Of a stretch of DNA of 64,000 nucleotides, positions 17,349 through 64,000 are shown piece by piece (position 1 is the stretch's first letter; each line of letters begins with the position of its first letter). The notes beneath the pieces were generated by a model that was given only the letters and a program-made list of their open reading frames with translations, was not told where the DNA came from and made no database searches. This stretch comes from Anaerolineaceae bacterium (GTDB lineage Bacteria; Chloroflexota; Anaerolineae; Anaerolineales; Anaerolineaceae). Where the stretch lies: positions 434,011 through 498,010 of the forward strand of contig JAURZL010000007.1 of the NCBI GenBank assembly GCA_030653365.1, read 5' to 3'. Both the position numbers and the translations under genes were made by a program.

Positions 17349-17355
17349 CTAGCAA

Positions 17356-17381: not shown

Positions 17382-17395
17382 ATGATTTAAGGCTA

Positions 17396-17420: not shown

Positions 17421-17427
17421 ATTGATT

Positions 17428-17667: not shown

Positions 17668-17693
17668 TTAATATTCCTCCTGATAAATCAATT

Positions 17694-22928: not shown

Positions 22929-25020
22929 CTATATGTTCCTCATCATTGTTAATTCCTGCAAATAATCCCAATGGAACTTCCATAAATAAAGGTCTTTTTG
23001 TTTGATCAGTAACTTCTTCTTCCGAGATACCCTCTTCTCTGAAAATACGTTTAATAATAGATGCGCAAGTCTTCGCACCGCAGGACCCCATTCCGGCTCT
23101 TGTAACAGTTTTAATTTCATTAAAATCCCTTATCCCTTGACGGATAAGGGATCGAATTTCCCCTGCTTTAACTCGTTCACACCGACAAACGATCATATCA
23201 TCATCTACGTGCCGAATATATTGGTCCATGGGATGCGTGATTTGACTTTCCTGCATTCGTATTCCTGCGATTTTGATTGCAGTTTCTCGGGGGGCTTGTA
23301 CATGAACAACCAAAGTTCTATCACTGGAAGGAATTGTGTGAACTGACATAACTTCATATTCACCTAAAGGATTTCCTTCTGTATCCATTGCCATTACTAA
23401 ATCTTTTTCTTGGATTGGATCGCGATTGAATTCATAAGGGATTGAAACTGTTGGCATTTCCAGATTGTTTCTGTAATCGACCAGGGTGATGGCCAACCCG
23501 GGACAACCAGCCACACATTGTTCACACACTTCACAACAAAAGCCATTACCCAAAAAGGTTGGTACACTGCGGATATCTTTTTGGTCTATGTATATCAGAC
23601 CATGTGGACAAAGATCTGCACAAGGGTTGCAGGGTATTTCCTGGGTGCAATGAATGATAGGAAATACACCTTCTTCGAATTCAGGAAGTTCTATTTTCTT
23701 ATTGGCTCCTGGTTTTGATTTGAGGATTTCAGATGTGCGATACCAGGAATCTGGTACTTCACCAACCTGAATACCAAGTGCTCTTGCAATTTCTCTGCCA
23801 CGAATTTTTCCAGCGATAATTGCTGCAGATGCTTCAGCTATTTCTTCAGCATCACCAGCCACAAATGTTGAAATCCCGTATTCCATCCCTTTTTTATAAA
23901 ATTCATTTACAGGATCTAATCCAACTGCGACAAGAATGCTGTCACACTCAAATGATTTTTCAGTACCAAAAATTGGTTGAAATTTATCATCGACCTGACT
24001 TATTGTAACGGATTCGACTTTGTCATTACCGTTTGCACTAATTATGGTGTGTGAAGTGAGGATTGGAACTCCCATTCGTAATAATTTATCTTTATGGACT
24101 TTGTAACCGCCACAATCTGGCAATGCTTCTACCAATCCAACAACACCAATTCCTGCCTGTAACGCGTGATAACCAGTAATTAGACCGACATTTCCTCCAC
24201 CAATAATGAATAATTTTTCAGCAGGACGAACAAGATCACGATTAACCAGGGTTTGGAAAGCTCCAGCACCATAAACCCCTGGCAGTGTATTCCCTTTGAA
24301 TGTAATAAATTTTTCTCTGGCACCAGAAGCAACTAATAGTATTTCGGGTTTTATCAGAATATATGTTTCTCCATCCTTTAAAACACCGACTTTCTTGTCA
24401 GAAAAAACAGCCAAAGCGGTTGAATTTAACCAAATATCAACACAAGAATAGGTTCTCAACTCGTCTTCTAATTTTGTTGCTATATCTATACCGCGCGTGC
24501 CTGCAAAGACAGCCTGTGTCGAACCAAAAAAACGATGGGTTTGCAGAACCAGTTTTCCCCCAAGGCGGTGTTTATCATCAATTAATATGGCTTGAATTCC
24601 CAATTTCGCCAGTTCCAAAGCAGCAGACAATCCAGCAGGACCACCACCAATGATTAATAATGGAATACTCAATTCGTGAATATTATCCATTTCTATTGGG
24701 TCATCAACTTTTGGCAAGACAGGAAAACCAATGAGTGGCTCAACTGACATTCCTTCCCCTACTTCTTCCATACATGCTTTTATTGGTATTCCATTCACCA
24801 TGACCATGCATTGAGAACATTGACCATTAGCACAGAATATTCCTTGTGGTGAATGATCTTTGTAATGATGACCAAAAACACGAATTCCATTGGCAAAAAG
24901 AGCTGCTGAAATTGTCTCACCTTTTTTTGCCGGTAAAACATTACCATTCCAATTGAAATTTATACTGGTTGTTTCCGGAATTTTTAAAATTGGATGTTTT
25001 TTTATTCTAAAATCAGTCAT
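22921..25020 (-). CDS. Multi-cofactor flavoprotein: 2Fe-2S N-domain, FAD/NAD(P) pyridine-nucleotide-disulfide oxidoreductase, Cys-rich 4Fe-4S-like segment and BFD-like [2Fe-2S] domain
   Basis: 699 aa. CANGQCSQCMV (2Fe-2S-type), IIGGGPAGLSAA and IIGGGNVGL Rossmann motifs, CNPCADLCP...CEVCEQCVAGCP, and a C-terminal CRCERV...GSCGAKTC (BFD-like). Confidence 0.75.
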   Translation of the reverse strand: MTDFRIKKHPILKIPETTSINFNWNGNVLPAKKGETISAALFANGIRVFGHHYKDHSPQGIFCANGQCSQCMVMVNGIPIKACMEEVGEGMSVEPLIGFPVLPKVDDPIEMDNIHELSIPLLIIGGGPAGLSAALELAKLGIQAILIDDKHRLGGKLVLQTHRFFGSTQAVFAGTRGIDIATKLEDELRTYSCVDIWLNSTALAVFSDKKVGVLKDGETYILIKPEILLVASGAREKFITFKGNTLPGVYGAGAFQTLVNRDLVRPAEKLFIIGGGNVGLITGYHALQAGIGVVGLVEALPDCGGYKVHKDKLLRMGVPILTSHTIISANGNDKVESVTISQVDDKFQPIFGTEKSFECDSILVAVGLDPVNEFYKKGMEYGISTFVAGDAEEIAEASAAIIAGKIRGREIARALGIQVGEVPDSWYRTSEILKSKPGANKKIELPEFEEGVFPIIHCTQEIPCNPCADLCPHGLIYIDQKDIRSVPTFLGNGFCCEVCEQCVAGCPGLAITLVDYRNNLEMPTVSIPYEFNRDPIQEKDLVMAMDTEGNPLGEYEVMSVHTIPSSDRTLVVHVQAPRETAIKIAGIRMQESQITHPMDQYIRHVDDDMIVCRCERVKAGEIRSLIRQGIRDFNEIKTVTRAGMGSCGAKTCASIIKRIFREEGISEEEVTDQTKRPLFMEVPLGLFAGINNDEEHIDE

Positions 25021-47550: not shown

Positions 47551-48732
47551 TTATTTGATCCAGTTCTTAATTCTATCGATTGCTTCCCGAATACGATCGG
47601 TACTTGTCCCTAATGATACACGTAAATAGCCTTCTCCATATTGCCCATAAACTAATCCTGGTGTTGTGCTCACCCCGGTTTCTTCTAATAATCGGTTACA
47701 GAATTCCATACTATCAGTTTGTCCCGATGGCAATTTTGCCCAAACATAGATTGCTGCAGGAGGTGCATCAACGATAAAACCAGCCTTTTTAAGACCAGCA
47801 ACAACAATATCTCGTCTGGTTTGATAAATTGAATTTCTCTTTGTCAACCAGGCTTGATCACCTGTGAGAGCAGCAATTCCTGCATCGATTACAGGTGCAA
47901 ATTGAGAAGAATCCATCTGGCTTTTATAAGTGTGGATGTAGCCAATTACATCTAGGTTTCCTACAGCCATTCCTAAACGCCAACCAGCCATATTATACGC
48001 TTTTGATAAAGAGTTGAATTCAACTGCAACTTCTTTTGCCCCATCCACCTGTAATAAACTTGGAGCAACGTACCCATCAAAACAGACATCCACATAAGGT
48101 GCATCGTGAGCAATGATAATGCGATTTTTTATTGCAAATGCAACAATTTCCTCAAAAAAGGAAAATGGGGCGATCGCACCTGTTGGATTATTGGGGTAAT
48201 TAATCCAGATTATTTTTGTTTTCTCAATGACATCCTGAGGAATAGAAGTCAGATCTGGGATAAAACCATTTTCACTAAATAATGGAAGTTTATAAATTTG
48301 TCCACCAGCAATTTGAGCACTAGCAGAATATACCGGATATCCGGGGTCTGGAACGATAACATAATCGCCAGGATTAACCAAAACTTGTGTCAGGTGGAAC
48401 AAACCTTCTTTTGAACCGATTAAACCCACGGTTTCTGTCATAGGATCTACTTTGACCCCAAATCTATTTTCGTAATAATATGAAATCGCCTTGCGAAATT
48501 CGGGACTTCCACCCATTGGCGTGTATCCGTGTTTATTCGGTAGGGAAGCTGATTCAGTTAATTTATCGATAATAAATGGTTCTGGTGGTAAATCGGGAGA
48601 ACCCATGTCAATTTTTATAATATCTACTCCTTTTTCTTGTAGGGTTAATATTTTTTTTGACAGCGTTGCAAAGTAATAGGGTTTGAAAGAGGCAATTCTA
48701 TCAGAGGGGTGAATGAATGAATAATTTTTCAT
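47551..48732 (-). CDS. Class I/II PLP-dependent aminotransferase (LL-diaminopimelate aminotransferase-like)
   Basis: 393 aa. NPNNPTG and SLSKAYNMAGWRLG (PLP lysine) motifs. Substrate assignment is uncertain. Confidence 0.8.
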   Translation of the reverse strand: MKNYSFIHPSDRIASFKPYYFATLSKKILTLQEKGVDIIKIDMGSPDLPPEPFIIDKLTESASLPNKHGYTPMGGSPEFRKAISYYYENRFGVKVDPMTETVGLIGSKEGLFHLTQVLVNPGDYVIVPDPGYPVYSASAQIAGGQIYKLPLFSENGFIPDLTSIPQDVIEKTKIIWINYPNNPTGAIAPFSFFEEIVAFAIKNRIIIAHDAPYVDVCFDGYVAPSLLQVDGAKEVAVEFNSLSKAYNMAGWRLGMAVGNLDVIGYIHTYKSQMDSSQFAPVIDAGIAALTGDQAWLTKRNSIYQTRRDIVVAGLKKAGFIVDAPPAAIYVWAKLPSGQTDSMEFCNRLLEETGVSTTPGLVYGQYGEGYLRVSLGTSTDRIREAIDRIKNWIK

Positions 48733-49943
48733 TTATTTAGTCCTTGTTCTTCCATTAAATTTCTCTCCGGCAATTTATCAATAATTGGCAGCAATATATG
48801 AAAAGTGGACCCTGGGAATTCAAGCTCATTATATCCATCGGATTCGACCCAAATTGATCCCCCGTGTGCTTCAGCAATCCCTTTTGCGATCGGTAGACCC
48901 AGACCAGGTCCTCCACCTTTAAATTTTGTTTTTCCACTTGAATGTAATGCAATATTTCCTAACCGGTTGAATTTATCAAATATGGTCGTTTGATCTTCGA
49001 GATTAATTCCAATTCCGGTATCCGATATAAGCACCTCAATGAAACCAGACAACTTCCGACCACCAATATTAATTTTTCCTCCGTCTGGTGTAAATTTTAA
49101 CGCGTTGGATAAAAGGTTTCTAAAAATTTGAATAATCCTTTCTGGATCACCATAATTCATATCAGAAAAACCATCAAAATCCTGGATGTTTATGGATAAA
49201 TTTCTTTCCTGACTAACTGGTGACACTTCGATAATGACAAATTCAAGAATTCTATTTAGCCAATATGGTTGATAATTGAGTTTTAGTAAATCATTTTCTA
49301 ATAATGAAACATCAATCATATCTTCGATGATGCCACGCAAGCGTTTAGAACCATTTATTATTCCATTTGCAAAAACTAACAAATCATTCTTGTTTTGTTT
49401 TAAAATTACATCAATCAGCATGGATGTATATCCATCGATTAAAGTCAGTGGAGTTTTGAGTTCATGGGCTGCCACAGCTACAAAATTACTTTTACTTTCA
49501 TCCAATTTAACCAGATCAGTTTGCAATTGATTAAGTTTTTTAGTAAGAAAAAGAATTTTTTGCTCTGTTTCAATATTTGCTGTTTTAGTAAATAAATACG
49601 AATAGATTGGCAAAAGCAGGCTACTCAACAAAACCGCATCTTCTGGCACAGTATTCTCAATAATTGTCTGATTAATGATTTGCACCAATTCATTGATAAA
49701 TTCATTAATGACATTTTTCTCTTCGGCTAAATCTGTTTGTGTCAACGAATTTGCCCAGCTAGTAAGTAATGGGTCAAACCATGATGGATCACCAGTCTCA
49801 ATTGCTTGAATCAGGTGGTTGAAGAATAAACTAAATTGATCGGATATTTCATTCTTTAATAAAGATCCTCGAATCAATTCGTGAACCACTTTTTTTTCAA
49901 AAATTGGATATAGGTTAATTAATATCTCTGATGGTAATGGCAT
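48729..49943 (-). CDS. Soluble sensor histidine kinase (no adjacent response regulator)
   Basis: 404 aa. H-box AAHELKTPLT, N box LLSNALKFT, G boxes DTGIGI and GPGLGLPIA. No obvious TM segment. 4-nt overlap with the aminotransferase gene. Confidence 0.85.
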   Translation of the reverse strand: MPLPSEILINLYPIFEKKVVHELIRGSLLKNEISDQFSLFFNHLIQAIETGDPSWFDPLLTSWANSLTQTDLAEEKNVINEFINELVQIINQTIIENTVPEDAVLLSSLLLPIYSYLFTKTANIETEQKILFLTKKLNQLQTDLVKLDESKSNFVAVAAHELKTPLTLIDGYTSMLIDVILKQNKNDLLVFANGIINGSKRLRGIIEDMIDVSLLENDLLKLNYQPYWLNRILEFVIIEVSPVSQERNLSINIQDFDGFSDMNYGDPERIIQIFRNLLSNALKFTPDGGKINIGGRKLSGFIEVLISDTGIGINLEDQTTIFDKFNRLGNIALHSSGKTKFKGGGPGLGLPIAKGIAEAHGGSIWVESDGYNELEFPGSTFHILLPIIDKLPERNLMEEQGLNK

Positions 49944-49983: not shown

Positions 49984-50850
49984 TTATGGCACTAATAACC
50001 AATGATATATTGTTCTGCCAATAATTTCCAGACTCTCTGGTGATATTTTATCCAGCGTATCTTGAGAAGTGTGCCAATAAGGATAATCAAAATCAATAAT
50101 ATCAATCGCTGTAATTCCCTTTTCAATAAATGGAATATGATCATCCAGAATAGTATATTTGTATTCTTGAATAAAAGAATCCTGATACCCTAAATCAGCA
50201 GCAATATTCCAAATTTCTTCCTGTAATTCTTTATCAGAATTATGTTCAAAATAGATATTTAAGTCCTTATCTCCAATCATATCAAGAATTACTACAGCAT
50301 CTGGTTTTCCATCCAACACATTTACAAAACTGCGTGATCCAAGGATCCAATCCCAACCTTCAATATTTCCTTGATCTTCTACATCAAAAAAAACAAACCA
50401 GATAATTTTATCGATACCATCAGGCAACACTCTTGCCAGTTCTAGAAGTACAGCAACGCCAGACGCGCCATCATTTGCACCTGCTACTGGTTGATTTTTA
50501 TTCTCAATCTTTGGATCATGATCGGCGAAAAATCGGGAATCATAATGAGCTCCAATAATAATCCAGGGTTGATCTACAGATGAGGGCATTTTGGCGATAA
50601 TATTTTGGATTTTGTAACCATTTAATTCTTCTGATTGAATTTCAGTACTCCAACCTGAGGAACTTAACTCAGTTGTAATAAATTCAATTGTTTTTTGGTG
50701 AGCCTCACTTCCAGGAGTTCTTGGTCCAAACTCAACCTGAATTTTCGCATAGTCATAAGCATTTTTTCCATCAAATTCTAATACAGGCGGAGTGGTACAG
50801 CTTGAGAGGAGTAATATCAGTACACAGGCAATCGTTATAAACGGTTTCAT
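49984..50850 (-). CDS. M28-family zinc peptidase (glutaminyl-cyclase/aminopeptidase-like), probable lipoprotein
   Basis: 288 aa. Signal peptide with lipobox [23 protein letters not shown] and HT..D motifs of M28. Confidence 0.75.
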
Positions 50851-52205
50851 GAAATGTTCTCCATACTTGACTTGATTAGATAATCATTTAGACTGGATTT
50901 TGCTATCTCGGCATATATTTTTGCGCGTTCGCGTTTTCCTTTGGCTGAAATTTGAGGTAATATACCAAAATTAGCTTTCATTGGTTGAAAATCACGCATA
51001 TCAGAATCCGTAATGTAATGACAGAGTGCTCCAAGCATAGTGGTTCTTGGTAAAACTATCAATTCATGACCCTGTAAATATTTGGTCATGTTAATCCCAG
51101 CTAAAAGGCCGGTAGCAATATTCCCAACATACCCTTCTACACCTGTAATTTGACCAGCAAAGAATAAATCATTTCTATCTTTGAATTGTAACGAGGGCAA
51201 TAATAATTTGGGAGAAGCTATGAAAGTATTTCGATGCATTTGTCCATATCGACCAAAGGTTGCTTTTTCCAGACCTGGTATCATCTGAAAGATTCTTTTT
51301 TGTTCTGAAAACTTTAGATTGGTTTGAAAACCAACCATGTTATAAAGAGTCCCAGCAAGATTATCCTGGCGAAGTTGAAGAACAGCATATGGTCTTTTAT
51401 CTTGATGAGGATTCCAAATACCCACTGGACGAAGTGGTCCAAAGGCTAATGATTTTTCCCCTCTTTTTGCTATGACTTCAACCGGCAGACAGCCTTCAAA
51501 ATATTGTTTATCACCAGCATTTACACCTTGATCAATTTCAGATTCAAAATCTTTTAATTCAATCCTTTGGGCACATACCAATTCATTTACAAATGCTTCG
51601 TATTCTTCTTTTGAAAAAGGGCAATTAATATAATCACCTGACTCTTCATCTCCTCTTTGATAACGGGAACCTTTGAAGGCAATATCCATATTTATCGAGT
51701 CGTAATTAATAATTGGAGCAATGGCATCATAAAAAAACAAGTTATCAGAATTTGATAATCTTGATATGCTTCTTGAAAGTGGTTGCGAAGTTAATGGACC
51801 TGAGGCAACAATGGTTGGTTGATGCGGAATTTCCAAAACTTCTTCACGGATAATATTTATCTTTGGGTGATTTGAAAGCAACTCGGTTACCGTAGATGAG
51901 AAAAGATCCCGATCCACAGCGAGCGCTCCTCCTGCAGGTAATGCATATTGGTCAGCAATTTTCATTAGCAAAGATTCCAACGTCCTTAATTCATTCTTAA
52001 GAACACCTGAAGCCCGGTCCGGCAAATTTGAACCTAAAGAATTTGAACAAATCAATTCCGCAAATTGATCAGTCGTATGCGCTCCAGTGGTTACCAATGG
52101 ACGCATTTCATACAAATTAACATGAAACCCAGTTTTCGCTAATTGATAAGCAGCTTCACTTCCTGCTAAGCCAGCACCGATTACTGTCACTGTTTGTTTT
52201 TCCAA
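50847..52205 (-). CDS. trmFO: Methylenetetrahydrofolate-tRNA-(uracil54-C5)-methyltransferase TrmFO
   Basis: 452 aa. [19 protein letters not shown] fold and [11 protein letters not shown] motif. TTG start with a GAGGA SD. Confidence 0.9.
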
Positions 52206-52246
52206 TGCATTGTCCTCGGTTCATATTTTACATCAAAAAATATGTC

Positions 52247-52262
52247 TGGCATACAACTTGCA
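52247..52262 (+). promoter_or_regulatory. Candidate sigma-54 (-24/-12) promoter upstream of rpoN
   Basis: TGGCATacaacTTGCA has GG and GC elements at the canonical spacing. It is 15/16 identical to the site at 56839-56854 and ends 45 nt upstream of the rpoN ATG. Confidence 0.6.
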
Positions 52263-52306
52263 ACATAGCCCTTCTATAGATATACTTATAAAGTGAGGAC
52301 AACATT

Positions 52307-53704
52307 ATGCTCCAATATCAATTTCAGGTACACAAGCCAATAACAACAGCGCATCTTGCGCAAACCATGACTTTGTTAAGCCTTTCTGCCTTTGAACTCA
52401 AGCAGCAAATAGACTCTGAATTGGCTGCGAATCCAGCTTTAGAGATCATTGAAGAACGTCGTTGCCCCCATTGCAAGCGGGTATTACCTGATAATGGAGC
52501 TTGCCCGATCTGTTCCAGGCCAATGAATACCGATAATGACGAACCAATTGTCTATGTTTCACCAATGGATGATTTTATTCCGATGTCTGATTATGACGAT
52601 TCTGATTTTTCGGAAGAACCTTTTTCACCAGCGACTGATGATCTAACCAGTTATGTGATAAAACAAATAGCGCCTGAGTTGTCTAAAGATCAACAACTCA
52701 TCGCCATTCATTTATTGACGAATTTAGATGATGATGGTTTTCTCAGCGTAAAATTAGTTGATGTTGCCCGCTATTTTCATGTTCCAATTTCACAAATAGA
52801 GGAAGTTCAAAAAGTAATTCAATTGGCTGACCCTATTGGAGTTGGATCCATTAATCCACAACAGGCTCTTTTGATTCAATTGGAAGTATTGTCTGAAAAT
52901 AATTCAATTCCTGAATATTCTATTGATATTGTCAAAGACCATATGGATTTATTGAGCAAGCGTCAATATTCAGAAATTGCAAAGAAACTTAAAATTAGTG
53001 TACAGAGAGTTGAAAAAATTGTAGAATTCATCAGTGATAATTTGAATCCTTTCCCAGCTCGCTCGCATTGGGGAAATGTACGCAATCCTTCAGCACCTGA
53101 TTCGAATGTTTATCACCGACCAGATGTATTGATATCCTTTTCGAATAACGATCCAAAAATGCAAATGATTGTTGAGATAGTTATGCCATATTCAGGAACA
53201 CTTCAAGTGAGTCCATTGTATAAACAGACAATAAAGCAAACAGATGCTGAATTAAAAGATGCTATGAAGGGTGATTTGGAACGTGCATCATTATTTGTGA
53301 AGTGTTTACAGCAGAGAAACCATACGATGCAGAGATTAATGCTTGAGTTGGTTAAGATTCAGAAACCTTACCTTACTAAAGGTGAAAAATTTTTAAAACC
53401 AATTACACGGGCAAGTCTTGCGGGGGAACTCGAAGTGCATGAATCAACAATTTCCAGAGCTGTTTCAGGAAAATCAGTTCAATTACCGAATAGAAAAATT
53501 GTACCCATGGCTGCATTTTTCGATAGAAGTCTTTCTGCAAGAACTATTCTTCGAGAAATTGTTTCGGCCGAGTCTAAACCATTGAGTGATACAGAAATTC
53601 AGAAAAAACTCGATGAACGAGGGATTCAAGTTGCACGTCGTACTGTTGCTAAATATCGAGCTATGGAAGGAATACTGCCAGCGCATTTACGGCAGGCTGC
53701 ATAA
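52307..53704 (+). CDS. rpoN: RNA polymerase sigma-54 factor, with a CxxC-x9-CxxC insertion after region I
   Basis: 465 aa. Gln/Leu-rich region I, core-binding region, and the C-terminal RpoN box ARRTVAKYR. Cys53/56/66/69 (RRCPHCKRVLPDNGACPICSRP). Confidence 0.9.
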   Translation: MLQYQFQVHKPITTAHLAQTMTLLSLSAFELKQQIDSELAANPALEIIEERRCPHCKRVLPDNGACPICSRPMNTDNDEPIVYVSPMDDFIPMSDYDDSDFSEEPFSPATDDLTSYVIKQIAPELSKDQQLIAIHLLTNLDDDGFLSVKLVDVARYFHVPISQIEEVQKVIQLADPIGVGSINPQQALLIQLEVLSENNSIPEYSIDIVKDHMDLLSKRQYSEIAKKLKISVQRVEKIVEFISDNLNPFPARSHWGNVRNPSAPDSNVYHRPDVLISFSNNDPKMQMIVEIVMPYSGTLQVSPLYKQTIKQTDAELKDAMKGDLERASLFVKCLQQRNHTMQRLMLELVKIQKPYLTKGEKFLKPITRASLAGELEVHESTISRAVSGKSVQLPNRKIVPMAAFFDRSLSARTILREIVSAESKPLSDTEIQKKLDERGIQVARRTVAKYRAMEGILPAHLRQAA

Positions 53705-53708
53705 GTGA

Positions 53709-55661
53709 ATGAATTCTGAAAAACCAAATTGGTTTCGCGAAGTATTATTAGGAAAAGTACAAAATGATAGTGCTACGATCTTTAAGAATTTATTAAATGT
53801 AATTCAAGATCCTGCAATCATTGTTGATTTTAATCGAAATGAAATAGTTAGTTTTAATGTGGAATTTTTGAAACTGACATCCTATTCACCTGTTGAACTG
53901 ACTACTTTTCAAATTGATGCAATTTTTAATATTGAGGGGGTTATTGATGCATCGATATCAGAGCCTTTTATGCTCGAAATTACAAAACGGAACAAGCAGG
54001 TTGTTGATGGTTATGCCTGGAAATATTACATTGATGATAAAAATTCCCAGTGTGTAATTGTCTTTAATGAAGAACAAATATTTATAGAAAAACAAAAATC
54101 CTGGCAGGATCATCTCTTTTTAACAATGCAGAAATTATTGCGATTGATCGAAGAAGAAGATCTGGAAAGTGCATTACAGAACTCGGTCAAATATATTGAA
54201 AACTTTTTTGAAACCCCACATGTGACAATTTATCAGGTGAATAGTGATATTCCAGAATTAACACGAATCGCAGCGAAAACCGAAAGTGATTTGTTACCAT
54301 TCACTTTACCTTCCAGTGATATTCGATTGGATCAAAAAACGAGTATCTGGACCCCTGGACATAGAGTACAAACCGAATTACAAAAAATTGCCCGGATCAG
54401 TAATCTGGCTTATATTGCAACTTCTGCGTTAGGACCTGGAAAAAGTGCATCAGCATTATTGGTTGTAGGTCAACAGAAGAAACAACCTCCCAAAAATTTA
54501 ATTTCAATTTTGGAGATGTTTTCAGCAGCAATTTCTTCAACACTTCAATATTTCATATTAGTAAAAGCTCTTCGATCAAAAATTGAATCTCAGGATTGGA
54601 TGATTGACGTAAATAATGAAATTCTTGTTCATGTTCAGGATGGAATTATTATTTTAAAACCTGAACTTAAAATCTGGATGATTAATCCAAGTGCAGAAAT
54701 TTTACTAGGTTACCAATCGCATGAAGTATCAGATCGGACTATTGACAATATCCTTATTGGCCCTGATAGCTTTTTACCTTTATTGGAATCAGCAAAAACA
54801 GATTTTGGGATTCATCGTCTTGGAATTGTGCATATTCATAATCGCAATGGTGATTCAGTGCCGGTGGATGCTCGCATTGTCCCGGTAATTCAAAATAATA
54901 ATTTACTCGCAATAATTATTTATTTGCGTGATGTCAGTGAAAATGAAGAGATAAAAACAAGAGCTCAACAATTGGAACATAGGGCTGTATTAGGAGAATT
55001 TACAGCAGTATTTGCTCATGAAGTTCGTAATCCCATCAATAATATTTCAATGGGTTTGCAAATCCTATCGAGAAGTTTTACGGAGGATCCCAAGAACAAA
55101 GATATGGTTGATCGAATGATCCATGATTGTGATCGATTAACCCACCAAATGGAAGCTGTTTTGGCTTATTCAAAACCATTCGATGCGAAATTCGAGTCTG
55201 TAGATGTGGCTATTCTGCTTCAAAGAATTCTTGATCGTTGGAAGCCGAGAATGTCAAGGGTTGGCGTAAAGGAATTTTTCCAAAAAGGGGAAGAATTACC
55301 TTTAATTACCGCAGATCCCCGGCTTTTGGAACAGGTATTTACAAATCTTATTGGTAACGCTATAGAAGCTATGACTCCTGATCAAAAAGGAACATTGGCT
55401 GTTCATATAAATATTTCAAGAACCATTTCAAATTATCCACAAATAGAGATTAAAATAATCGACAGTGGACCTGGCATCCCTGATGATGTCAGAGGGCATG
55501 TTTTCGAACCATTTGTTACAACTAAAAAAACTGGAACCGGATTAGGATTGGCAATTAGTAAACGAATCATTACTGCTCACCGTGGTAATATTACAGTCGA
55601 ATCTTATCCTGGTGGAGGAACAGTTTTCGCTGTTTATTTACCGACCAAACAAGGAGATTAA
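53709..55661 (+). CDS. Soluble multi-sensor (PAS/GAF-like) histidine kinase, NtrB-type
   Basis: 650 aa with no TM segments. H-box FAHEVRNPINNI, N box NLIGNAIEAM, G boxes DSGPGIP and GTGLGLAIS. Starts 4 nt after the rpoN stop. Confidence 0.85.
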   Translation: MNSEKPNWFREVLLGKVQNDSATIFKNLLNVIQDPAIIVDFNRNEIVSFNVEFLKLTSYSPVELTTFQIDAIFNIEGVIDASISEPFMLEITKRNKQVVDGYAWKYYIDDKNSQCVIVFNEEQIFIEKQKSWQDHLFLTMQKLLRLIEEEDLESALQNSVKYIENFFETPHVTIYQVNSDIPELTRIAAKTESDLLPFTLPSSDIRLDQKTSIWTPGHRVQTELQKIARISNLAYIATSALGPGKSASALLVVGQQKKQPPKNLISILEMFSAAISSTLQYFILVKALRSKIESQDWMIDVNNEILVHVQDGIIILKPELKIWMINPSAEILLGYQSHEVSDRTIDNILIGPDSFLPLLESAKTDFGIHRLGIVHIHNRNGDSVPVDARIVPVIQNNNLLAIIIYLRDVSENEEIKTRAQQLEHRAVLGEFTAVFAHEVRNPINNISMGLQILSRSFTEDPKNKDMVDRMIHDCDRLTHQMEAVLAYSKPFDAKFESVDVAILLQRILDRWKPRMSRVGVKEFFQKGEELPLITADPRLLEQVFTNLIGNAIEAMTPDQKGTLAVHINISRTISNYPQIEIKIIDSGPGIPDDVRGHVFEPFVTTKKTGTGLGLAISKRIITAHRGNITVESYPGGGTVFAVYLPTKQGD

Positions 55662-55666
55662 TTCAA

Positions 55667-56830
55667 ATGGGTTTTACAGTCTTGGTAGTGGACGATGAAG
55701 AAAATGCGCGAACAAATCTAGAGACTTTTCTTACGCCATTAGGTTATGAAGTAATTGGTGTGGGAACATTAGAAGATGCCAGGTCGGAACTTCGAAAAGG
55801 AAATTGTGATATTGTTCTACTCGACGTTCAATTACCGGATGGTTTTGGTCCAAACCTATTGTATGAGACTCTCAATATGAAGTTAAGACCACCCATGATC
55901 CTCATTACGGGTTTCCCAGATATAGAAATTGCGGTGGAAGCCATGCGTAATGGCGCACATGATTTCTTAATTAAACCAATAAAACTGGACCGACTTGAAC
56001 TCTCTATCCAGAGGGCAATTGAAATTGTTAAGATGCGGCGCGAATTAGCATTGTTTCGAGATACTCAAAAAAACAGTGTTCAATTTGTTACTGGCAATAG
56101 CAACCATATGAAACATGTATTGAATCAGGCGGAAAGAGCAGCCTCGATGTCCGTTTCAGTTCTCATCACTGGTGAAACAGGTGTTGGAAAAGATGTGCTT
56201 GCTAATTTTATTCATAGCGTAGGTCCCCGATCCCACAAGATGTTTGTTGCCATTAATTGCGCAGCTATTCAAAGCACTATGCTTGAATCGGAATTATTTG
56301 GGCATGAATCTGGTGCATTCACCGGAGCAGATAAACGAAAACATGGTCTCATGGAAACGGCTGATGAAGGTGTTTTGTTTTTGGATGAAATTTCATCGAT
56401 GCCATTGGACATGCAAGCAAAATTATTACGAGCCATAGAATCTAAGGCTTTCCGAAGAGTGGGTGGAAATAATCTGATTAATGTAGATGTCCAGGTTGTT
56501 GCAGCTTCCAATAGAAATTTGGAGCAAATGATTGAAAAAAATGAATTTCGCTCAGATCTCTATTACAGATTGAAAGTAGTTGATCTTCATGTCCCCGCAT
56601 TAAGGGAACGAAAAGAAGACATTCCGGAATTGGTTGGTTTCTTCATAAAACAAAAAAACATGAAGATGGGTGTAAATATTCTGGACATTACTCCTCGAGC
56701 TATGGAAAAACTAGTTACATATAGTTGGCCAGGCAATATTCGGGAATTAAGTAACGCCATTGAAAGTGCAATGTTATTCTGTGACACCGGGATTATTGAT
56801 CTACCAAATTTGCCCTTGAATCTGCAATAA
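55667..56830 (+). CDS. Sigma-54-dependent response regulator (REC plus AAA+) lacking a C-terminal DNA-binding domain
   Basis: 387 aa. REC domain with DIVLLDVQLPDG; Walker A GETGVGKD; GAFTGA loop (ESGAFTGA); Walker B LFLDEI; WPGNIRELSNAIE. The protein ends about 24 aa after this motif, with no HTH and no continuing frame. Confidence 0.9.
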   Translation: MGFTVLVVDDEENARTNLETFLTPLGYEVIGVGTLEDARSELRKGNCDIVLLDVQLPDGFGPNLLYETLNMKLRPPMILITGFPDIEIAVEAMRNGAHDFLIKPIKLDRLELSIQRAIEIVKMRRELALFRDTQKNSVQFVTGNSNHMKHVLNQAERAASMSVSVLITGETGVGKDVLANFIHSVGPRSHKMFVAINCAAIQSTMLESELFGHESGAFTGADKRKHGLMETADEGVLFLDEISSMPLDMQAKLLRAIESKAFRRVGGNNLINVDVQVVAASNRNLEQMIEKNEFRSDLYYRLKVVDLHVPALRERKEDIPELVGFFIKQKNMKMGVNILDITPRAMEKLVTYSWPGNIRELSNAIESAMLFCDTGIIDLPNLPLNLQ

Positions 56831-56838
56831 AAAGTTAT

Positions 56839-56854
56839 TGGCACACAACTTGCA
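56839..56854 (+). promoter_or_regulatory. Sigma-54 (-24/-12) promoter for the downstream membrane-protein/TPR operon
   Basis: TGGCACacaacTTGCA matches the consensus TGGCAC-N5-TTGCW with exact spacing. It lies 8 nt after the EBP stop and 35 nt before the next start codon. Confidence 0.75.
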
Positions 56855-56889
56855 TCAAACCTCTAGAAGATTGTTCTGGAGGTTTTCTT

Positions 56890-57201
56890 ATGCAAAAAGA
56901 TGAAATAATCACGTTGCTAACACTTGTTTTTATGGGATTAGGATTTGTCTCATTTCTAACGGGTTTTATAGTTTTGTTAACCCGTGTATTAGGTAAAGGG
57001 ATAACTAAGATCGCCAATGAAACCCAAAAAGTGGTTCAAAAAGGTATTACAGAAGAAATAGCCTCAATTATTGGGAATGCATCTGTATTGATTGAATCAC
57101 TTAACCAACTGGTTACGACCTCTGCTGGAATTGGTGTGTTCCTGATGGTATTGGGAGTTTTACTTATGGGTGGATCCTTTGCATTATTCTTGCGATTCTA
57201 G
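56890..57201 (+). CDS. Small two-TM membrane protein (unknown function), first cistron behind the sigma-54 promoter
   Basis: 103 aa. GGAGG SD 7 nt upstream. Hydrophobic helices at both ends flank a ~45-aa polar helical segment. Confidence 0.6.
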   Translation: MQKDEIITLLTLVFMGLGFVSFLTGFIVLLTRVLGKGITKIANETQKVVQKGITEEIASIIGNASVLIESLNQLVTTSAGIGVFLMVLGVLLMGGSFALFLRF

Positions 57202-57221
57202 ATTATTCAACAGGAGTTTAC

Positions 57222-60200
57222 ATGAATACGACATTATTTTTTAAATCCTTAAAGGATAGTCTGAATGAAATTGATCAGAAGATCCTGATCGAGTCAGCCA
57301 ATCAAGATAAGGTAATTCTTAGCAAAATAAGCAATTATGATTTTTACAGTCAGTGTATTGAGACATTCGGAAATAAACTTTCAACGTGGACACTTGGAAA
57401 AATTGCTTTGTTTTCAATTGGTATCAAAATCGATATTCTTGACAAAGATATAAAAGAAAAATTCTATCTCAAGAATTCTATATCTGTAGTAGATGATACT
57501 TTGAAAAATCACATAAAAGAGGTAGATTTTACAAAAGCAACGAATATCGCACTGGCTCTATTTGAAAGAAAAAGGAAAAACCAGTCATGGATTGGATTAA
57601 TTGATGAATTGTCTTCAGGTATTCCCAGAAAATACGTATTGACGACCTGGCGAACCAGCATTTCAATTCTTTATAGTTTACTTAATGATGACGAAAATTT
57701 CCTGCTGGCATTAGTTAATGATAATGATCCCTACTTAGGTATCAGCTTTGTAAACCATATTATCGCAACTCAGTTAATATCCCACAAACAAAAAGCAACG
57801 TTAATTGTCAAATTGCTTGAGAAACTTCCTATTGAGACTCAAATAACCTGGCTTCAAACAATCCCAGTACAAATTTCAATCTTAAGTGAAGAAATTGCAG
57901 TTGCTCTAGGAAATTCTAAAACTTTCACCAGTTCTCAAAATGTCAGTCATACCCTGACCGATTTTGATGATGTATCGAAATTGGACTCGATATTTAAGAT
58001 CAATCTATTAAATGGCTTTAAGAACAAAATCGAAAATTCTCCAGTTCAAGCCAAAAGCAATTTCCGTTCAGCTAAGGAAAAACTTCAAAAGATCCTTCAA
58101 TTAATTGATCTCAACCTGATTCACAAATCGATTGATGATTTGAAAGACGACACAATCAAATATGTTAATGATCCAAAATTCAATGATCTGGTTTTTACAC
58201 AAATAGGTACAGATCAACAAACTTCTGGAGGTAAAAATCAAGATAACCAATTAAATGGAATTCTGGCAAATCTTGCTTTTGCCTGTGAGGTCCTGAAGAA
58301 TGGTGATGCTCCAAAAGCCAGGGAGATTGGTTCGAGGCAGTTTAGAAATTGGATTGAAACTCAACAGTCCAGCTGGCCTTCACCAGAAACGCTCTCTTAT
58401 CTCATAAAACTTGACCACAAAAAATTAATCGAACTTCTCAATAAATTAAGCTTAAATGGAATAAGTGCTGAATATGTGAAATTCTTAGAATCTATTTCGA
58501 TTCCTCGTGTGGATTATCAGGAGGAATATATTGAAGGTCTTCAAACCTTAAATCAGACAGATGAAGCTTATCGAGAATTAAAAATCTCATTATTGTCAGA
58601 CATCAATAATGAGAGTGTATATAAACAGATTTTTTCAATTTTAGAAAAGAATAATAAATGGGACTCCTTGTATTTGGAATGGGAAGATTATTCTAGAAAT
58701 TTCAATTTATCCCACGATGATTGGATTCATTTTGCAGATGCAGCCTTAGAAGCTAAAAAATATGATGAGACAAAAAAAATAATTGAGAAAATGCAAAAAG
58801 AGGGCGTCAATGAAACCCAAATTGATATGCTTTGGGGCAAGATGTTCTACAGAGAAGGTGATTATGAAAAAGCGAGAACCATTTTTGAAGATACAACAAA
58901 AAGATTGCCTGATTATGAGGAAGGTTGGATAGTTCTGAGTGAAGTTTATAACAAGATGGGTTTAATCCAGAAATCATTAGAAACCCTGAGATCTGCAGTT
59001 ATTACAATTCCAGATTCACCAATCATTCAATTTAATCTGGCTAAATCCTGCATCGATCAGGAATTATATGCAGAAGCATTACCTTATATTCGGAAAGCAG
59101 TTGCTTTAGACCCGAATAATGCCACCTTCAATCATTCATTAATTCAAACGTTACAAATATTAGGAAGAATTGATGAAGCAGACACGATTTTAAGTCAGGC
59201 AAGATTGAAATGGCCACTTGAGCCAGAACTTGCTTTTGCTGAAGCGGTTCGCCAGGTTGAAAAACAAAATCGAGATGCTGCTTTGATTGCATTTGAAGTT
59301 TCTGTAAACACTACTAGGATGGACGTCCCGATTTCTCGATTACTTTTGTACGTGCAAACAATTCTTGGTGACCGTCCTGAGAAATTTTTACCAACCGATG
59401 GCAAATTCAACAATATGAGTAATCTGTTGTCTTCTCAACGAATTCTTCAAAAAGCATTAAAAAATTCAGTAGGTGATAATCAATATTTACAAATAATTTT
59501 AGGAGAAATTTATTTCTTAATTGGTGAATACGAAGCGGCTAATTCGTTGTATACGCAATTGATAAATGAGTTTAAATCAAATCAAAAACACCAACCTCTA
59601 TTGTGGAGAGTCTATGCAGGATTGGGACTGGTGAAAATTGGTCTTTCAGAACTTGACAGTGGAATAGCTGCTTTACAGGAAGCGGATCAACTTAATCAAA
59701 AACATTTGGGTATCAAACAAAAATGTGCGGAAGCTTATCTTTCTGCTTCATTGCTAAGTCAGGCTGAGGCAAAAGCAGAAGAAATTTATGAATTAGGATC
59801 CACAGTAATTGATAACTTGTTATGGTATTCCGATTTTATGACAAAATTAGGGAAACCAGAAAGAGAAATCCGTGGTTTGGAACAAATACTCCATTTTGAT
59901 CCATCCAATTGTTCTGCAATAACTCGATTAGCAAGTATTTATATTTCCAATGGCGATTCAGAACTGGCTAGTGAAGTTTTGGAGAGACTAACAAACGTTG
60001 AAAATATTCCCAATGAAGATATTAGAAGCGCTGTGATTTCATTTCTGCGGATCGGGAAAAATGAAGAAGCACTCGTCTGGTTTGGTAAGATTTCAGAAAG
60101 TAAAAATGGTCTCCAAACAAAAGTAAACAAATTTGAGAAAATTTACTTGTTGATTATCAATAATCGATGGGAAATGGCTTTGGCAGAAATTCAGGAGATT

Positions 60201-62591
60201 AAGAAATCCACTTCCAACGCTAGGATAATTTCTTCTCTGGAAGGAGAATGCCTATTCAATAAAGAAGATTATTCTGCTTCTGTAAATGCTTATGAGACAG
60301 CATTATTACTTCAAAAAGGCGAATCAAATGAGGTTATTGAAAATATCCACAAAGGCTCATTAATCCCTGAGAATTGGATACAAAGTCGGGTGCAGGATTT
60401 ACAGATTTTGTATTCATTGTCAATTGCATACAAAAAGCTCATGGAGTTTGATCATAGTCTTGAGGTAATCAACCGAATGATTAAGTTTAATCCATCAGAT
60501 CTTTGGATTTATTTGATGGGGGCAGAATATGCAATGGAAATTACTGATTACGATTTAGTTTCAGATTATTTATTGAAATTAAAAAATAATACAAATTCAT
60601 CAGAGTGGCAGGGAACAAGCATGTATGCAACTGCAATAGATTATGCATGTGCATATCTCGATGGTCGCGATTATCGATTGTCGATTAATGAAAACGAAGA
60701 AAATGATGAAATAAAGAAATTACTTGCAGCTCATCAGATGCTCGATAAAAATTTGTTTGAAGAAGCCACAAAAATATATGATGAAACTTCTCAGTCGAAT
60801 ATTAACGAGACATCCAACTCAAATAAATATGATGATGGAAAATATGATGATATCAAAAAATCCATAACAAAAAGGTTAGCATTGATATTGGCATGGCGAT
60901 TATATGATTTTGAAAAAACAGCAGAATTTCTTGATTATCAAACAAATAATTCATTGGAGCGAGTTGATCAAGCAATTTTCAAATTATCAGTGAATTTAAG
61001 TTACAAAAAATATCTGGGTTTATTCAATTCGAATTTGGTGAAAGCTCACCAAAGTAAATTGATTGAGGCTGAGTTGAACAATCCCGATGTAACAAATCAA
61101 TTGCTATCCGTCATAAATCGATATGGGAAAACAAGAGCGATTAAAAATATTGAACAATTATATAAAGTAATAAAGGAAAAAGATTTTTCAACTGCATTTA
61201 GTCTGCTGAATTCTAAAACACTTCCAAAATACCAGGTTTTTATATTGGTTGACGAATTAATGAAGGCTGGAAAATCGGAAATTGTTAATGAATATTTTAC
61301 AAATTTTAGAAGTGAATTGAGTGACAGCATATTTTATCTCATGAACAGACTGAATGATCCGATTGACGAATTAATTTCATTTATCGAAAACCAAACTTCA
61401 TCGGATGATCCCCTTTGGTTAATGACCTGCTCAATGATTTTTGAGAAAGGTGGATTTCACGATGAGGCTATAGATTTTGCTGAACAGGCATATAAAATTT
61501 GGCCTCAGGAAGATCAATGGGTAATTCGAATTGCAAAACTATATCAAATTATCGGTGATTTTGACAAAGCAGATGAGTATTGGGCGAAAATCGTTGAAAG
61601 TTCTAATAGCACTGAATCTGTTATTTATGAGTATGCAAATTTATTACTCGACAATAAAAAATCCAGTGAGGTAATTCAATTATTGGATCATCATAAGCCC
61701 AATATCGCTGAATCCTTTGAATTTCATTTTGTAATGGCAAAGGCATATCTTCTGGAGAGATCACATGAAAACCTAATCCAATCTATTCAATTAGCAAGAA
61801 AATTTAGACCTGATTCCGCAGAAATCCAATATTTGGAAGCTGAAGCTTATTTGTTGATTGGCGAAGTTGAAAAATCAAAGAACAAAATTCAAGATATTCT
61901 TGTCAATAATCCTAGATTTGAAAAAGCCCATATTCTAAATGCAAATCTTCTCCGAATTGATGGAAAGAATTCTGACGCCATAAAATTGATTAATCGAAGT
62001 TTAGATATATGTCCTGATAGCAAAGGCTTATTAATTGAAAAGGTTCGAAATCTCAGGGATATGAAAAACTATTCAGAGGGATTACTTATCACGTCTGAAT
62101 TGTCTCAGCGTTTTCCAAAGGATTTAGATGTGCTTGAAATTCTGGCTAATTTATATATCGATATTGAGGATTTCCAGGCAGCTGAAATGGTGGCAAGAAA
62201 GAGTATTCACCTTCAACCAAATCAATCATCAATCCATTTACTGTTAGGGAAAATTGCCAGAAAACAAGGGCATTTGGATCAGGCATTAGATCACCTCACT
62301 AAAGCTGGATTAATAAAAATTGAAAGTATAGAACCCTGGTTGGAAATGGGTGACATTTATCTTGAACAAAATGAATTGGAAAAAGCTCTTGATGCTTTCA
62401 GAGAAGCTATCTCAAGAGATGAAAACGATTATCGAGCTTTTTATAAAGCAGGTCTGCTCTTACGTGATCTCAAGGATTATCAAGGTGCAGAGAAGATGTT
62501 GAAAATTGCGTCGTCCCTATCTCCAAAAGACACAAGTATTCGCCGACAATTAGCCGGTGTTATTGCATTGAATTTGGTTCACTCTTCATAG
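57222..62591 (+). CDS. Giant (1789 aa) TPR-repeat protein with a ~500-aa N-terminal region of unknown fold
   Basis: A single uninterrupted ORF with AGGAG SD. From about residue 500 onward there are many 34-residue TPR-like units (for example GDYEKARTIFEDTTKRLPDYEEGW, NELEKALDAFREAISRDENDYRAF). No enzymatic motif recognised. Confidence 0.8.
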   Translation: MNTTLFFKSLKDSLNEIDQKILIESANQDKVILSKISNYDFYSQCIETFGNKLSTWTLGKIALFSIGIKIDILDKDIKEKFYLKNSISVVDDTLKNHIKEVDFTKATNIALALFERKRKNQSWIGLIDELSSGIPRKYVLTTWRTSISILYSLLNDDENFLLALVNDNDPYLGISFVNHIIATQLISHKQKATLIVKLLEKLPIETQITWLQTIPVQISILSEEIAVALGNSKTFTSSQNVSHTLTDFDDVSKLDSIFKINLLNGFKNKIENSPVQAKSNFRSAKEKLQKILQLIDLNLIHKSIDDLKDDTIKYVNDPKFNDLVFTQIGTDQQTSGGKNQDNQLNGILANLAFACEVLKNGDAPKAREIGSRQFRNWIETQQSSWPSPETLSYLIKLDHKKLIELLNKLSLNGISAEYVKFLESISIPRVDYQEEYIEGLQTLNQTDEAYRELKISLLSDINNESVYKQIFSILEKNNKWDSLYLEWEDYSRNFNLSHDDWIHFADAALEAKKYDETKKIIEKMQKEGVNETQIDMLWGKMFYREGDYEKARTIFEDTTKRLPDYEEGWIVLSEVYNKMGLIQKSLETLRSAVITIPDSPIIQFNLAKSCIDQELYAEALPYIRKAVALDPNNATFNHSLIQTLQILGRIDEADTILSQARLKWPLEPELAFAEAVRQVEKQNRDAALIAFEVSVNTTRMDVPISRLLLYVQTILGDRPEKFLPTDGKFNNMSNLLSSQRILQKALKNSVGDNQYLQIILGEIYFLIGEYEAANSLYTQLINEFKSNQKHQPLLWRVYAGLGLVKIGLSELDSGIAALQEADQLNQKHLGIKQKCAEAYLSASLLSQAEAKAEEIYELGSTVIDNLLWYSDFMTKLGKPEREIRGLEQILHFDPSNCSAITRLASIYISNGDSELASEVLERLTNVENIPNEDIRSAVISFLRIGKNEEALVWFGKISESKNGLQTKVNKFEKIYLLIINNRWEMALAEIQEIKKSTSNARIISSLEGECLFNKEDYSASVNAYETALLLQKGESNEVIENIHKGSLIPENWIQSRVQDLQILYSLSIAYKKLMEFDHSLEVINRMIKFNPSDLWIYLMGAEYAMEITDYDLVSDYLLKLKNNTNSSEWQGTSMYATAIDYACAYLDGRDYRLSINENEENDEIKKLLAAHQMLDKNLFEEATKIYDETSQSNINETSNSNKYDDGKYDDIKKSITKRLALILAWRLYDFEKTAEFLDYQTNNSLERVDQAIFKLSVNLSYKKYLGLFNSNLVKAHQSKLIEAELNNPDVTNQLLSVINRYGKTRAIKNIEQLYKVIKEKDFSTAFSLLNSKTLPKYQVFILVDELMKAGKSEIVNEYFTNFRSELSDSIFYLMNRLNDPIDELISFIENQTSSDDPLWLMTCSMIFEKGGFHDEAIDFAEQAYKIWPQEDQWVIRIAKLYQIIGDFDKADEYWAKIVESSNSTESVIYEYANLLLDNKKSSEVIQLLDHHKPNIAESFEFHFVMAKAYLLERSHENLIQSIQLARKFRPDSAEIQYLEAEAYLLIGEVEKSKNKIQDILVNNPRFEKAHILNANLLRIDGKNSDAIKLINRSLDICPDSKGLLIEKVRNLRDMKNYSEGLLITSELSQRFPKDLDVLEILANLYIDIEDFQAAEMVARKSIHLQPNQSSIHLLLGKIARKQGHLDQALDHLTKAGLIKIESIEPWLEMGDIYLEQNELEKALDAFREAISRDENDYRAFYKAGLLLRDLKDYQGAEKMLKIASSLSPKDTSIRRQLAGVIALNLVHSS

Positions 62592-62601: not shown

Positions 62602-64000
62602 ATGGAATTTTCAAATCCAACTCATGAACAAAACATTAATCGTGGAACAGTTATTCAACTGATTGTTTCAGCATTACAAAATAATAAAATTGTCTTTGGA
62701 AGACAGTTGGCGCAAAAATGGTTATCGTCTTATCCTGGCGATCTTACAATGCAATATTATTTGGCTTTGTTTTACCAAAAAGAAAACAAATTAGATTTAG
62801 CCATAGAAACAACTAAAAATCTAATAGAAGCTGACCCAGAAAATTTAACTGCGCATGAATTTTATGCAACCTTACCAATCCCTGAAGATGAAAAAAACCT
62901 TTCTTTGGCTTGTATTCATATTTTGGGTGGTGTAATCAAAAACAAAAGTGCTTTACCTGCCTGGAGCCCAGCATTACGGGTTGTAAAGAAATCCATAGGA
63001 AAAGAGAAATTTGATAATGCCGGAGATTTAATGGTCAGGGTACTGTCTTTAAAATTAGATAATCCGATTATCAATTTGTTCCACATCAAGTCTATATATT
63101 TTCAACATGACTCTACAACAACCAGAAATCTTGCAGAAATTTATTATCAAAAATGGCCAAAAACAATCCTGTATAAATTAATTCTGGCTGAACAATTATT
63201 AGAAACCGGTGAAGAAGAAGAAGCTGTAAATTTATTACATGAATGTGTCGCAAATGATTCTGCTGGACAGGTAGCTCGTAGATTGTGGGGAGACCAACAT
63301 GTATTCTTACCATTGTGGCCAGAAGTTCTAACTATCCGTTTTGATTTTCAGGTTCCAGGAGAAGTTGCGTCAGATATGGGATGGAATCGTTTACCAGAAG
63401 GAAAATTAGAAGTCAGCAATTACATTTTTGATGGTCAACCAGAAGAAAATTCAAAGAACTTTTCTGGTGCTCCCCGAAGTAAGGCGTTTATGGAGGCAGA
63501 AAAGGAGTTTCAAAGGATTGCTAAATCAATCAAAAAAGATTTTAGCGGCAAGCTGGATGGACGTTTTCCTGTCTATGTAATTATGTCAACCAAAACTGGG
63601 CTTATTCAACAATATGGAGAACAAACCTATAATGTGATCTTGCAATCAATGTCACAGATAAATTTGGTAATGCAAAAGAAACCAGGGTGGGATAGTCTCC
63701 TATTTATTCCAGATGATCCTAAAAGCCAACAAAAATTAAATTTAGCACCGATTACAGTAATCGACCCGTGGAAATTGAAATTAGCAATTCATGATTTAGA
63801 TAAAATGCTTGCAAAACGCGGAGAACGTATTGGATCTTTATTGATTGTAGGTGGAAATGAGGTCGTTCCATTCCATCGATTACCCAATCCAACAGATGAT
63901 GTTGATGACGAAATTATGTCTGATAACCCTTATGGAAGTTTGGATAATAATTACTTTGTTACAAACTGGCCTTTAGGGCGGATCATAGGGGAAAAAGGGC
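62602..64000 (+). CDS. Open-ended ORF (more than 466 aa, 3' end outside the window): N-terminal TPR-like region plus a domain with a gingipain/peptidase-C25-like motif
   Basis: Absent from the supplied ORF track, which lists no plus-strand ORF here; there is no stop codon in this frame in the window. I translated it by hand from ATG 62602 (AGGAGA SD 6 nt upstream) and found no in-frame stop to base 63999. It ends ...LLIVGGNEVVPFHRLPNPTDDVDDEIMSDNPYGSLDNNYFVTNWPLGRIIGEKG. Confidence 0.7.
   Translation, partial: MEFSNPTHEQNINRGTVIQLIVSALQNNKIVFGRQLAQKWLSSYPGDLTMQYYLALFYQKENKLDLAIETTKNLIEADPENLTAHEFYATLPIPEDEKNLSLACIHILGGVIKNKSALPAWSPALRVVKKSIGKEKFDNAGDLMVRVLSLKLDNPIINLFHIKSIYFQHDSTTTRNLAEIYYQKWPKTILYKLILAEQLLETGEEEEAVNLLHECVANDSAGQVARRLWGDQHVFLPLWPEVLTIRFDFQVPGEVASDMGWNRLPEGKLEVSNYIFDGQPEENSKNFSGAPRSKAFMEAEKEFQRIAKSIKKDFSGKLDGRFPVYVIMSTKTGLIQQYGEQTYNVILQSMSQINLVMQKKPGWDSLLFIPDDPKSQQKLNLAPITVIDPWKLKLAIHDLDKMLAKRGERIGSLLIVGGNEVVPFHRLPNPTDDVDDEIMSDNPYGSLDNNYFVTNWPLGRIIGEKG

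Follow-up and report, generated by a model that had tools for sequence, protein, structure and literature searches.

A predicted sigma-54 promoter sharing DNA with a sigma-70 promoter ahead of rpoN suggests autoregulation of sigma-54 synthesis in Anaerolineae

Sigma-54 is normally treated as a constitutive factor, the activity of which is set only by its activators. The rpoN gene of Pseudomonas putida and rpoN2 of Bradyrhizobium are negatively autoregulated, and the nifU2-rpoN superoperon of Rhodobacter capsulatus is an rpoN-containing operon located behind a -24/-12 promoter. The prxS-rpoN2 operon of Rhizobium etli and Mesorhizobium loti depends on sigma-54 and NifA (PMC3538637), and rpoN of Rhizobium leguminosarum is cited in the same paper as being negatively autoregulated. 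With such cases documented, the remark in an earlier note on the DNA studied here, that rpoN is usually expressed constitutively, overstated the novelty of a sigma-54-dependent rpoN (PMC3538637). Promoters of the sigma-54 and sigma-70 types that overlap each other have been described for glmY (PMC3045617) and Vibrio parahaemolyticus qrr2 (bioRxiv 10.1101/2021.07.01.450815), and enhancer-independent activation for FlgS/FlgR-sigma-54 of Helicobacter and CtcB/CtcC-sigma-54 of Chlamydia (PMC3162934, PMC7482065). Thus, sigma-54-dependent rpoN, negatively autoregulated rpoN, overlapping promoters and activators without a DNA-binding domain are each known already. For the phylum concerned here, Francke et al. 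noted sigma-54 only in "some Chloroflexi" (PMC3162934), and our literature search found neither work on sigma-54 in Anaerolinea nor an account in which these features come together at rpoN itself. The locus reported below has in common with prxS-rpoN2 a (predicted) -24/-12 promoter driving an rpoN-containing operon.

Inspection of the window, i.e. the whole stretch of 64,000 nucleotides of Anaerolineaceae DNA that was analysed, revealed a sequence reading exactly TGGCATACAACTTGCA on the plus strand in the trmFO-rpoN intergenic region (Table 1). It can be written as TGGCAT-ACAAC-TTGCA and fits the canonical TGGCAC-N5-TTGCW, with GG and GC 10 nt apart; it is co-oriented with rpoN and lies a short distance upstream, 44 nt separating it from the ATG, or 45 when counted from the last motif base as in the earlier note. 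This predicted promoter was designated P_rpoN, with a predicted sigma-54 start at about 52273. A copy, TGGCACACAACTTGCA, was located after the rpoN-kinase-activator operon and designated P_small; comparison of the two confirmed the single mismatch in 16 positions that had been claimed. Allowing up to three mismatches, the motif had three matches in the window, as compared with a mean of 0.67 in shuffled sequences, none of 100 shuffles reaching three. A weight matrix, the training set of which consisted only of the orthologous downstream promoters (P_small) of other genomes, gave 28.4 bits for P_rpoN and 28.8 bits for P_small, the next best score on both strands of the 64 kb being 12.1 bits. 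The likeness is therefore indeed unlikely to have arisen by chance, as had been argued. The loose pattern TGGC-N7-TTGC with one mismatch was not enriched in the window (52 matches versus 42.8 expected), indicating that the signal resides in the full 16-18 nt motif. On the minus strand, TGGCAGAGAAATTGCA (bp 23785-23800, 10.8 bits) was found within the reading frame at 22921-25020 and is probably a chance match. A search of bp 52000-57400 against Rfam gave no match near the gathering score.

Table 1. Coordinates of the features of the rpoN region, as positions in the window
Feature	Position	Strand	Remarks
trmFO	50847-52205	-	divergent from rpoN
Divergent trmFO / M28 peptidase promoter, putative -10 region TAAAAT	52225-52233	-	back-to-back with P_rpoN; deduced from sequence only
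Predicted sigma-54 promoter P_rpoN	52247-52262	+	GG 52248-49 (-25/-24), GC 52260-61 (-13/-12)
TTGCAA, sigma-70 -35-like hexamer	52258-52263	+	identical with sigma-54 -12 element
TATACT, sigma-70 -10 hexamer	52281-52286	+	17 nt after TTGCAA
rpoN, sigma-54, 465 aa	52307-53704	+	Pfam AID, CBD, DBD; RpoN box ARRTVAKYR
PAS-HisKA-HATPase histidine kinase, 650 aa	53709-55661	+	cytoplasmic, no hydrophobic segment
Sigma-54 activator, 387 aa	55667-56830	+	receiver (D53) and AAA+ with GAFTGA
Predicted sigma-54 promoter P_small	56839-56854	+	predicted start about 56865
Hairpin	56857-56885	+	3' arm holds Shine-Dalgarno GGAGG (56878-56882), followed by a U-run
103-aa protein, first output-operon gene	56890-57201	+	two hydrophobic segments
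1789-aa TPR-repeat protein	57222-62591	+	
837-aa TPR and Peptidase_C25 protein, last output-operon gene	62602-64000	+	5' part, cut by window end

Gene identities were assigned from Pfam and NCBIfam. The three regulatory genes are spaced by only 4-5 nt in the window, the kinase gene beginning 4 nt after rpoN, and rpoN has a Shine-Dalgarno sequence, GTGAGGA, at bp 52293-52299. The activator possesses Walker A and B motifs, GAFTGA and the receiver Asp53, and it stops right after the AAA lid (AAA_lid_14), aligning with positions 6-389 of the 461 of the AtoC model and 1-378 of the 463 of the NtrC model, so that it is without the C-terminal helix-turn-helix or any DNA-binding domain; its orthologues end at the same point. 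It scored below every NCBIfam equivalog cut-off, suggesting that it is no orthologue of a named system. By eye, no upstream activating sequence was apparent at P_rpoN, the conserved features noted above the -24 element being confined to an AAAATT stretch and the -10 region of the divergent promoter. No second rpoN and no paralogous activator was found in the window and the 757 kb of flanking DNA, and when the collection was searched for either, orthologues and sequences from distant phyla were all that came back. It was also noticed that a CPxC-N9-CPxC sequence, resembling a zinc ribbon or knuckle, is located just after the activator-interacting region of RpoN (residues 53-69, window 52463-52513) and is present in all 58 of the 58 RpoN orthologues. 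To our knowledge, the sigma-54 proteins of model organisms have no insert of this type. RpoN of Helicobacter is stabilised by FlgZ, a zinc-ribbon protein distinct from it (PMC3372290). A second HisKA-HATPase kinase gene (404 aa, bp 48729-49943, minus strand) lies two genes upstream of trmFO.

A search with the RpoN protein yielded 63 loci, all from Anaerolineae or unclassified Chloroflexota and sharing 45-91% identity, including the isolates Longilinea arvoryzae, Ornatilinea apprima and Anaerolinea thermolimosa. The gene order, with an M28 peptidase gene and trmFO diverging from rpoN-kinase-activator-small-TPR, was kept in essentially all of them, one subgroup being without trmFO and retaining the remaining order. 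Conservation of the motif upstream of rpoN orthologues had been named beforehand as a check, and TGG(C/T)A-N6-T.GC. was found in all 60 loci holding the rpoN 5' end, 51-68 nt before the start codon. Among 61 sequences anchored on the motif, the consensus was cTGGCAya.AACTTGCAaC; motif columns outside the search pattern were 80-100% conserved, most flanking columns carried 0-0.3 bits, and the flanking intergenic bases were randomised across relatives. Applied to 757 kb of related loci, the weight matrix gave 125 matches of at least 12 bits, 118 of them at the two expected places (63 just upstream of rpoN and 55 just after the activator gene); of the 7 elsewhere, one is an rpoN promoter as well, from a locus in which rpoN is frameshifted. 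Since the motif is conserved at both positions, a chance origin of the repeat is rejected, as is a local duplication of recent date. A second sigma-54-like motif was observed in tandem upstream of the main one in a few loci, namely L053 (about 84 and 66 nt before rpoN) and L021, L023 and L058 (about 108 nt before rpoN).

Since a loose GG-N10-GC pattern is common by chance, we considered that the motif might be no sigma-54 site at all, having recurred by chance or serving a different DNA-binding protein as its operator. This is very improbable, because a match to the canonical TGGCAC-N5-TTGCW occurs at two fixed positions flanking a sigma-54/activator operon in about 60 genomes, the motif is not palindromic, and similar intergenic sites, among the matches listed, precede other Anaerolineae genes. 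The latter came from a scan of the collection with the extended motif TGGCAYRNAACTTGCAWC, in which the matches listed also included the same architecture in further Anaerolineae and in one Candidatus Aquidulcis (Limnocylindria) genome. The further intergenic sites in other Anaerolineae genomes suggest a regulon larger than two promoters: among the matches listed, extra TGGCAY..AACTTGCAWC sites were situated 20-80 nt before genes in L087, L100, L105, L124, L127 and L129. The predicted products in L087, L124 and L127 have N-terminal hydrophobic, signal-like segments, and those in L100, L105 and L129 carry no functional assignment. TATACT was absent from all of these extra sites, and the genes behind them are candidate regulon members.

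Examination of the region downstream of the -24 element revealed that the sigma-70 promoter at rpoN shares DNA with the sigma-54 one, the predicted -12 element being at the same time the -35 hexamer. TTGCAA-17-TATACT is a near-consensus sigma-70 promoter (9 of 12 matches), with a predicted start at about 52292-52294 and a predicted leader of only about 13 nt, at the very 5' end of which the Shine-Dalgarno sequence is located. The promoter regions of 59 loci, every one a distinct sequence, were compared, and an exact TATACT was found 16-18 nt after the TTGCA hexamer in 56, with a spacer of 17 in 49. No good -10 hexamer is found at that spacing at P_small, where none of 51 sequences reached at least 5 of 6 matches. 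At its sixth position, the shared hexamer carries A, the sigma-70 preference, in 33 of 59 sequences at P_rpoN, and T in 39 of 51 at P_small. The basal sigma-70 promoter, which according to the earlier note would still be required, is accordingly predicted to exist and is conserved, but it is no separate element, its -35 hexamer being the sigma-54 -12 element. In three divergent loci (L136, L152 and L181), which were found through the motif itself among the matches listed, the -10 hexamer is TATAAT and lies just 5-6 nt after TTGCAA. The sigma-70 -35 would thereby fall on the -24 element, so that the sigma-54/sigma-70 overlap is kept in a different geometry, a full overlap like that of glmY.

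The C of TATACT is invariant in 56 of the 59 genomes, whereas -10 hexamers usually tolerate variation at position 5. Sigma-70 recognition does not account for the invariance, and TATACT may carry another constraint. That TATACT is the generic -10 hexamer of this genome was not supported, as TATAAT showed the higher intergenic enrichment in the window (6.4-fold versus 2.8-fold), and RNA structure in the rpoN leader was rejected as the cause of the conservation (median z-score 0.17). Further upstream, ATTTTACC or ATTCTACC was conserved in most loci (window 52225-52242). The complement is TGGTAAAAT, an extended -10; in most relatives the divergent -10 is TG-extended, reading TGGTAAAAT or TGGTAGAAT, and the extended -10 TGGTAAAAT apparently belongs to a divergent trmFO or M28 peptidase promoter. 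ATGCCA, the complement of the -24 element, was considered as the -35 of this divergent promoter and judged coincidental, because its spacing to the divergent -10 varies among loci. The AAAATT element, conserved 5-9 nt before the -24 element, may be UP-like.

The first base of P_small lies 9 nt past the end of the activator stop codon (56830), 35 nt lie between the motif and the next ATG (56890), and its presence after the activator gene is conserved in 52 of 53 loci. A hairpin is situated in the leader of the 103-aa gene in every locus (L001-L063), and in each of the 49 distinct sequences its stem begins 1-7 nt past the -12 C, with the 5' anti-Shine-Dalgarno (anti-SD) arm upstream of the predicted sigma-54 start. 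Its median z-score against shuffled sequences was -5.3, with 98% below -2 (44 distinct loci), and compensatory changes were seen in 4 of the 8 core pairs. Given the predicted start, these features would fit a translational insulator embedded in P_small: because the anti-SD arm precedes that start, read-through RNA from the rpoN operon would be terminated or have its ribosome-binding site (RBS) sequestered, and transcripts initiated at P_small, being without the anti-SD arm, should be translatable. The hairpin also accords with a basally transcribed regulatory operon that needs insulation from the output. The output operon adjoins the regulators throughout the Anaerolineae loci examined. In a contig with the same TPR protein (L263, output operon at bp 9669-17894), the gene for the 837-aa protein with TPR and Peptidase_C25, a gingipain/caspase-fold family, comes next and is followed by alaS.

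What was observed here, namely the overlapping promoter elements, how far they are conserved and which domains the proteins have, is consistent with the following scheme; that the factors bind, occlude and activate as described, and which sign the feedback has on balance, is what we infer. RNA polymerase carrying the housekeeping sigma would use TTGCAA-17-TATACT to supply basal sigma-54, kinase and activator, and sigma-54 holoenzyme would occupy the overlapping TGGCAT-N5-CTTGCA site. As the -12 element is also the -35 hexamer, the geometry implies that the two holoenzymes could not bind simultaneously. With the activator unphosphorylated, a silent sigma-54 closed complex would occlude the sigma-70 promoter, resulting in less sigma-54, i.e. 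negative autoregulation; the footprint of the closed complex must cover the -35 hexamer, so that idle holoenzyme should lower sigma-70-driven rpoN transcription. Once the cytoplasmic kinase has phosphorylated the activator, the closed complexes at P_rpoN and P_small would be remodelled together from solution, since an activator without a DNA-binding domain needs no enhancer and any sigma-54 closed complex should fire. At the activated P_rpoN, the regulatory operon would then start about 20 nt further upstream and positive feedback would follow, while the output operon encoding the small membrane protein, the 1789-aa TPR protein and the TPR-C25 peptidase-like protein would be switched on in parallel, the hairpin shielding these genes from basal read-through. 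The scheme is in line with reports that sigma-54 represses where its site overlaps another promoter, as stated in PMC4591121 with reference to Zafar 2014, that it does so at the overlapping promoters of qrr2 (bioRxiv 10.1101/2021.07.01.450815) and glmY (PMC3045617), and that activators lacking a DNA-binding domain work from solution and on any closed complex (PMC3844500; for FlgR and CtcC, PMC3162934 and PMC7482065).

Sigma-54 thus very probably autoregulates its own synthesis in this genome and in about 60 Anaerolineae relatives, and it may both repress and activate rpoN. We favour, with moderate confidence, the mixed arrangement, in which sigma-70 provides the basal expression, idle sigma-54 holoenzyme occludes, and phosphorylation of the activator leads to activation, because it follows from two premises, that sigma-54 binds the site and that the activator is enhancer-independent. 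As promoter strengths cannot be read from sequence, some probability has to be left to a purely positive and a purely negative version. In the former, the sigma-54 promoter would amplify the operon on signal, the sigma-70 promoter would be only basal and the overlap would have no regulatory consequence. P_rpoN does have the full consensus and a score equal to that of the output promoter, it should respond to an activator lacking a DNA-binding domain (PMC3844500) and prxS-rpoN2 provides a precedent (PMC3538637); however, the exact sharing of the hexamer is conserved in 56 of 59 genomes, the overlap persists where the -10 has moved, stable closed complexes are general for sigma-54 holoenzyme, and occlusion has been shown elsewhere (PMC4591121; the qrr2 preprint), which makes the purely positive version unlikely. 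Slightly less likely still is the reverse, that sigma-54 holoenzyme at this site does no more than occlude the sigma-70 promoter, without ever initiating productively, as might be suspected from the overlap of the site with the -35 hexamer and from the negatively autoregulated rpoN of R. leguminosarum (as cited in PMC3538637). P_rpoN is indistinguishable from P_small, which is taken as productive, both having the same extended consensus TGGCAY..AACTTGCAWC, and an activator acting from solution would not discriminate among closed complexes. Under the favoured mixed arrangement, of the positive feedback loop proposed in the earlier note the conserved sigma-54-type promoter stands, but because unactivated holoenzyme should repress rpoN, the overlap makes the loop as likely negative or mixed as purely positive; bistability of the loop is speculation.

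Taken together, the finding is a well-supported comparative prediction, which places sigma-54, a kinase and an activator in what looks like a feedback loop through a promoter common with the housekeeping sigma, in a deep-branching and poorly studied class. If true, transcription should start at two points about 20 nt from each other, loss of the GG should relieve repression, and a phosphomimetic activator should act as an inducer. A wider proposal, which we put forward tentatively and consider possible but not likely as a whole, is that of a self-contained sigma-54 switch in Anaerolineae and at least one Limnocylindria genome, in which idle holoenzyme would repress its own sigma-70 promoter and sigma-54 would activate itself once the enhancer-independent activator is phosphorylated, with the output shielded by the anti-SD arm in the promoter; together, these could give an all-or-none, possibly bistable commitment in filamentous bacteria. 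The arrangement points to a conserved output of a giant TPR protein and a C25-type peptidase in the Anaerolineae loci examined, and the composite promoter with its promoter-embedded translational insulator would be a compact natural design for synthetic circuits.

Compared with the known systems, the proposed loop resembles prxS-rpoN2 in that sigma-54 and an activator would raise sigma-54 synthesis and that a weak promoter is needed for the basal level. In the rhizobial case, the operon holds an additional rpoN of specialised role, NifA acts from an upstream activating sequence to which it binds, and basal expression has a promoter of its own, whereas here, in Chloroflexota, the basal sigma-70 promoter overlaps the sigma-54 site and the activator, lacking a DNA-binding domain, is encoded in the same operon. 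With rpoN of the R. leguminosarum type it would share the lowering by sigma-54 of transcription of its own gene; those cases are not known to have an activator gene in the same operon, and no class-wide conserved architecture has been described for them. P_rpoN is like the promoters of glmY and qrr2 in having both promoter types on the same DNA, and by analogy idle sigma-54 would block sigma-70 until the activator switches the promoter; the latter two drive small RNAs instead of rpoN, and hence exert no feedback on sigma-54, and the geometry at P_rpoN, with the -12 element identical to the -35 hexamer and predicted starts about 20 nt apart, is different. As for FlgR and CtcC, a cytoplasmic kinase is paired with a receiver-AAA+ protein without a DNA-binding domain, but in the FlgS/FlgR and CtcB/CtcC systems rpoN lies outside the operon, and no promoter of the sigma-54 type has been reported in front of it. 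A parallel to the hairpin is the fold-back inhibition of IS10 transposase, in which outside transcripts pair the RBS, and transcripts from the own promoter start inside the pairing segment and are translatable. Likewise, read-through RNA at P_small would carry the RBS-pairing segment and RNA from its own promoter, as judged from the predicted start, would not; in contrast to IS10, the P_small hairpin is located between two chromosomal operons of one module and, in the AT-rich lineage, is terminator-like as well.
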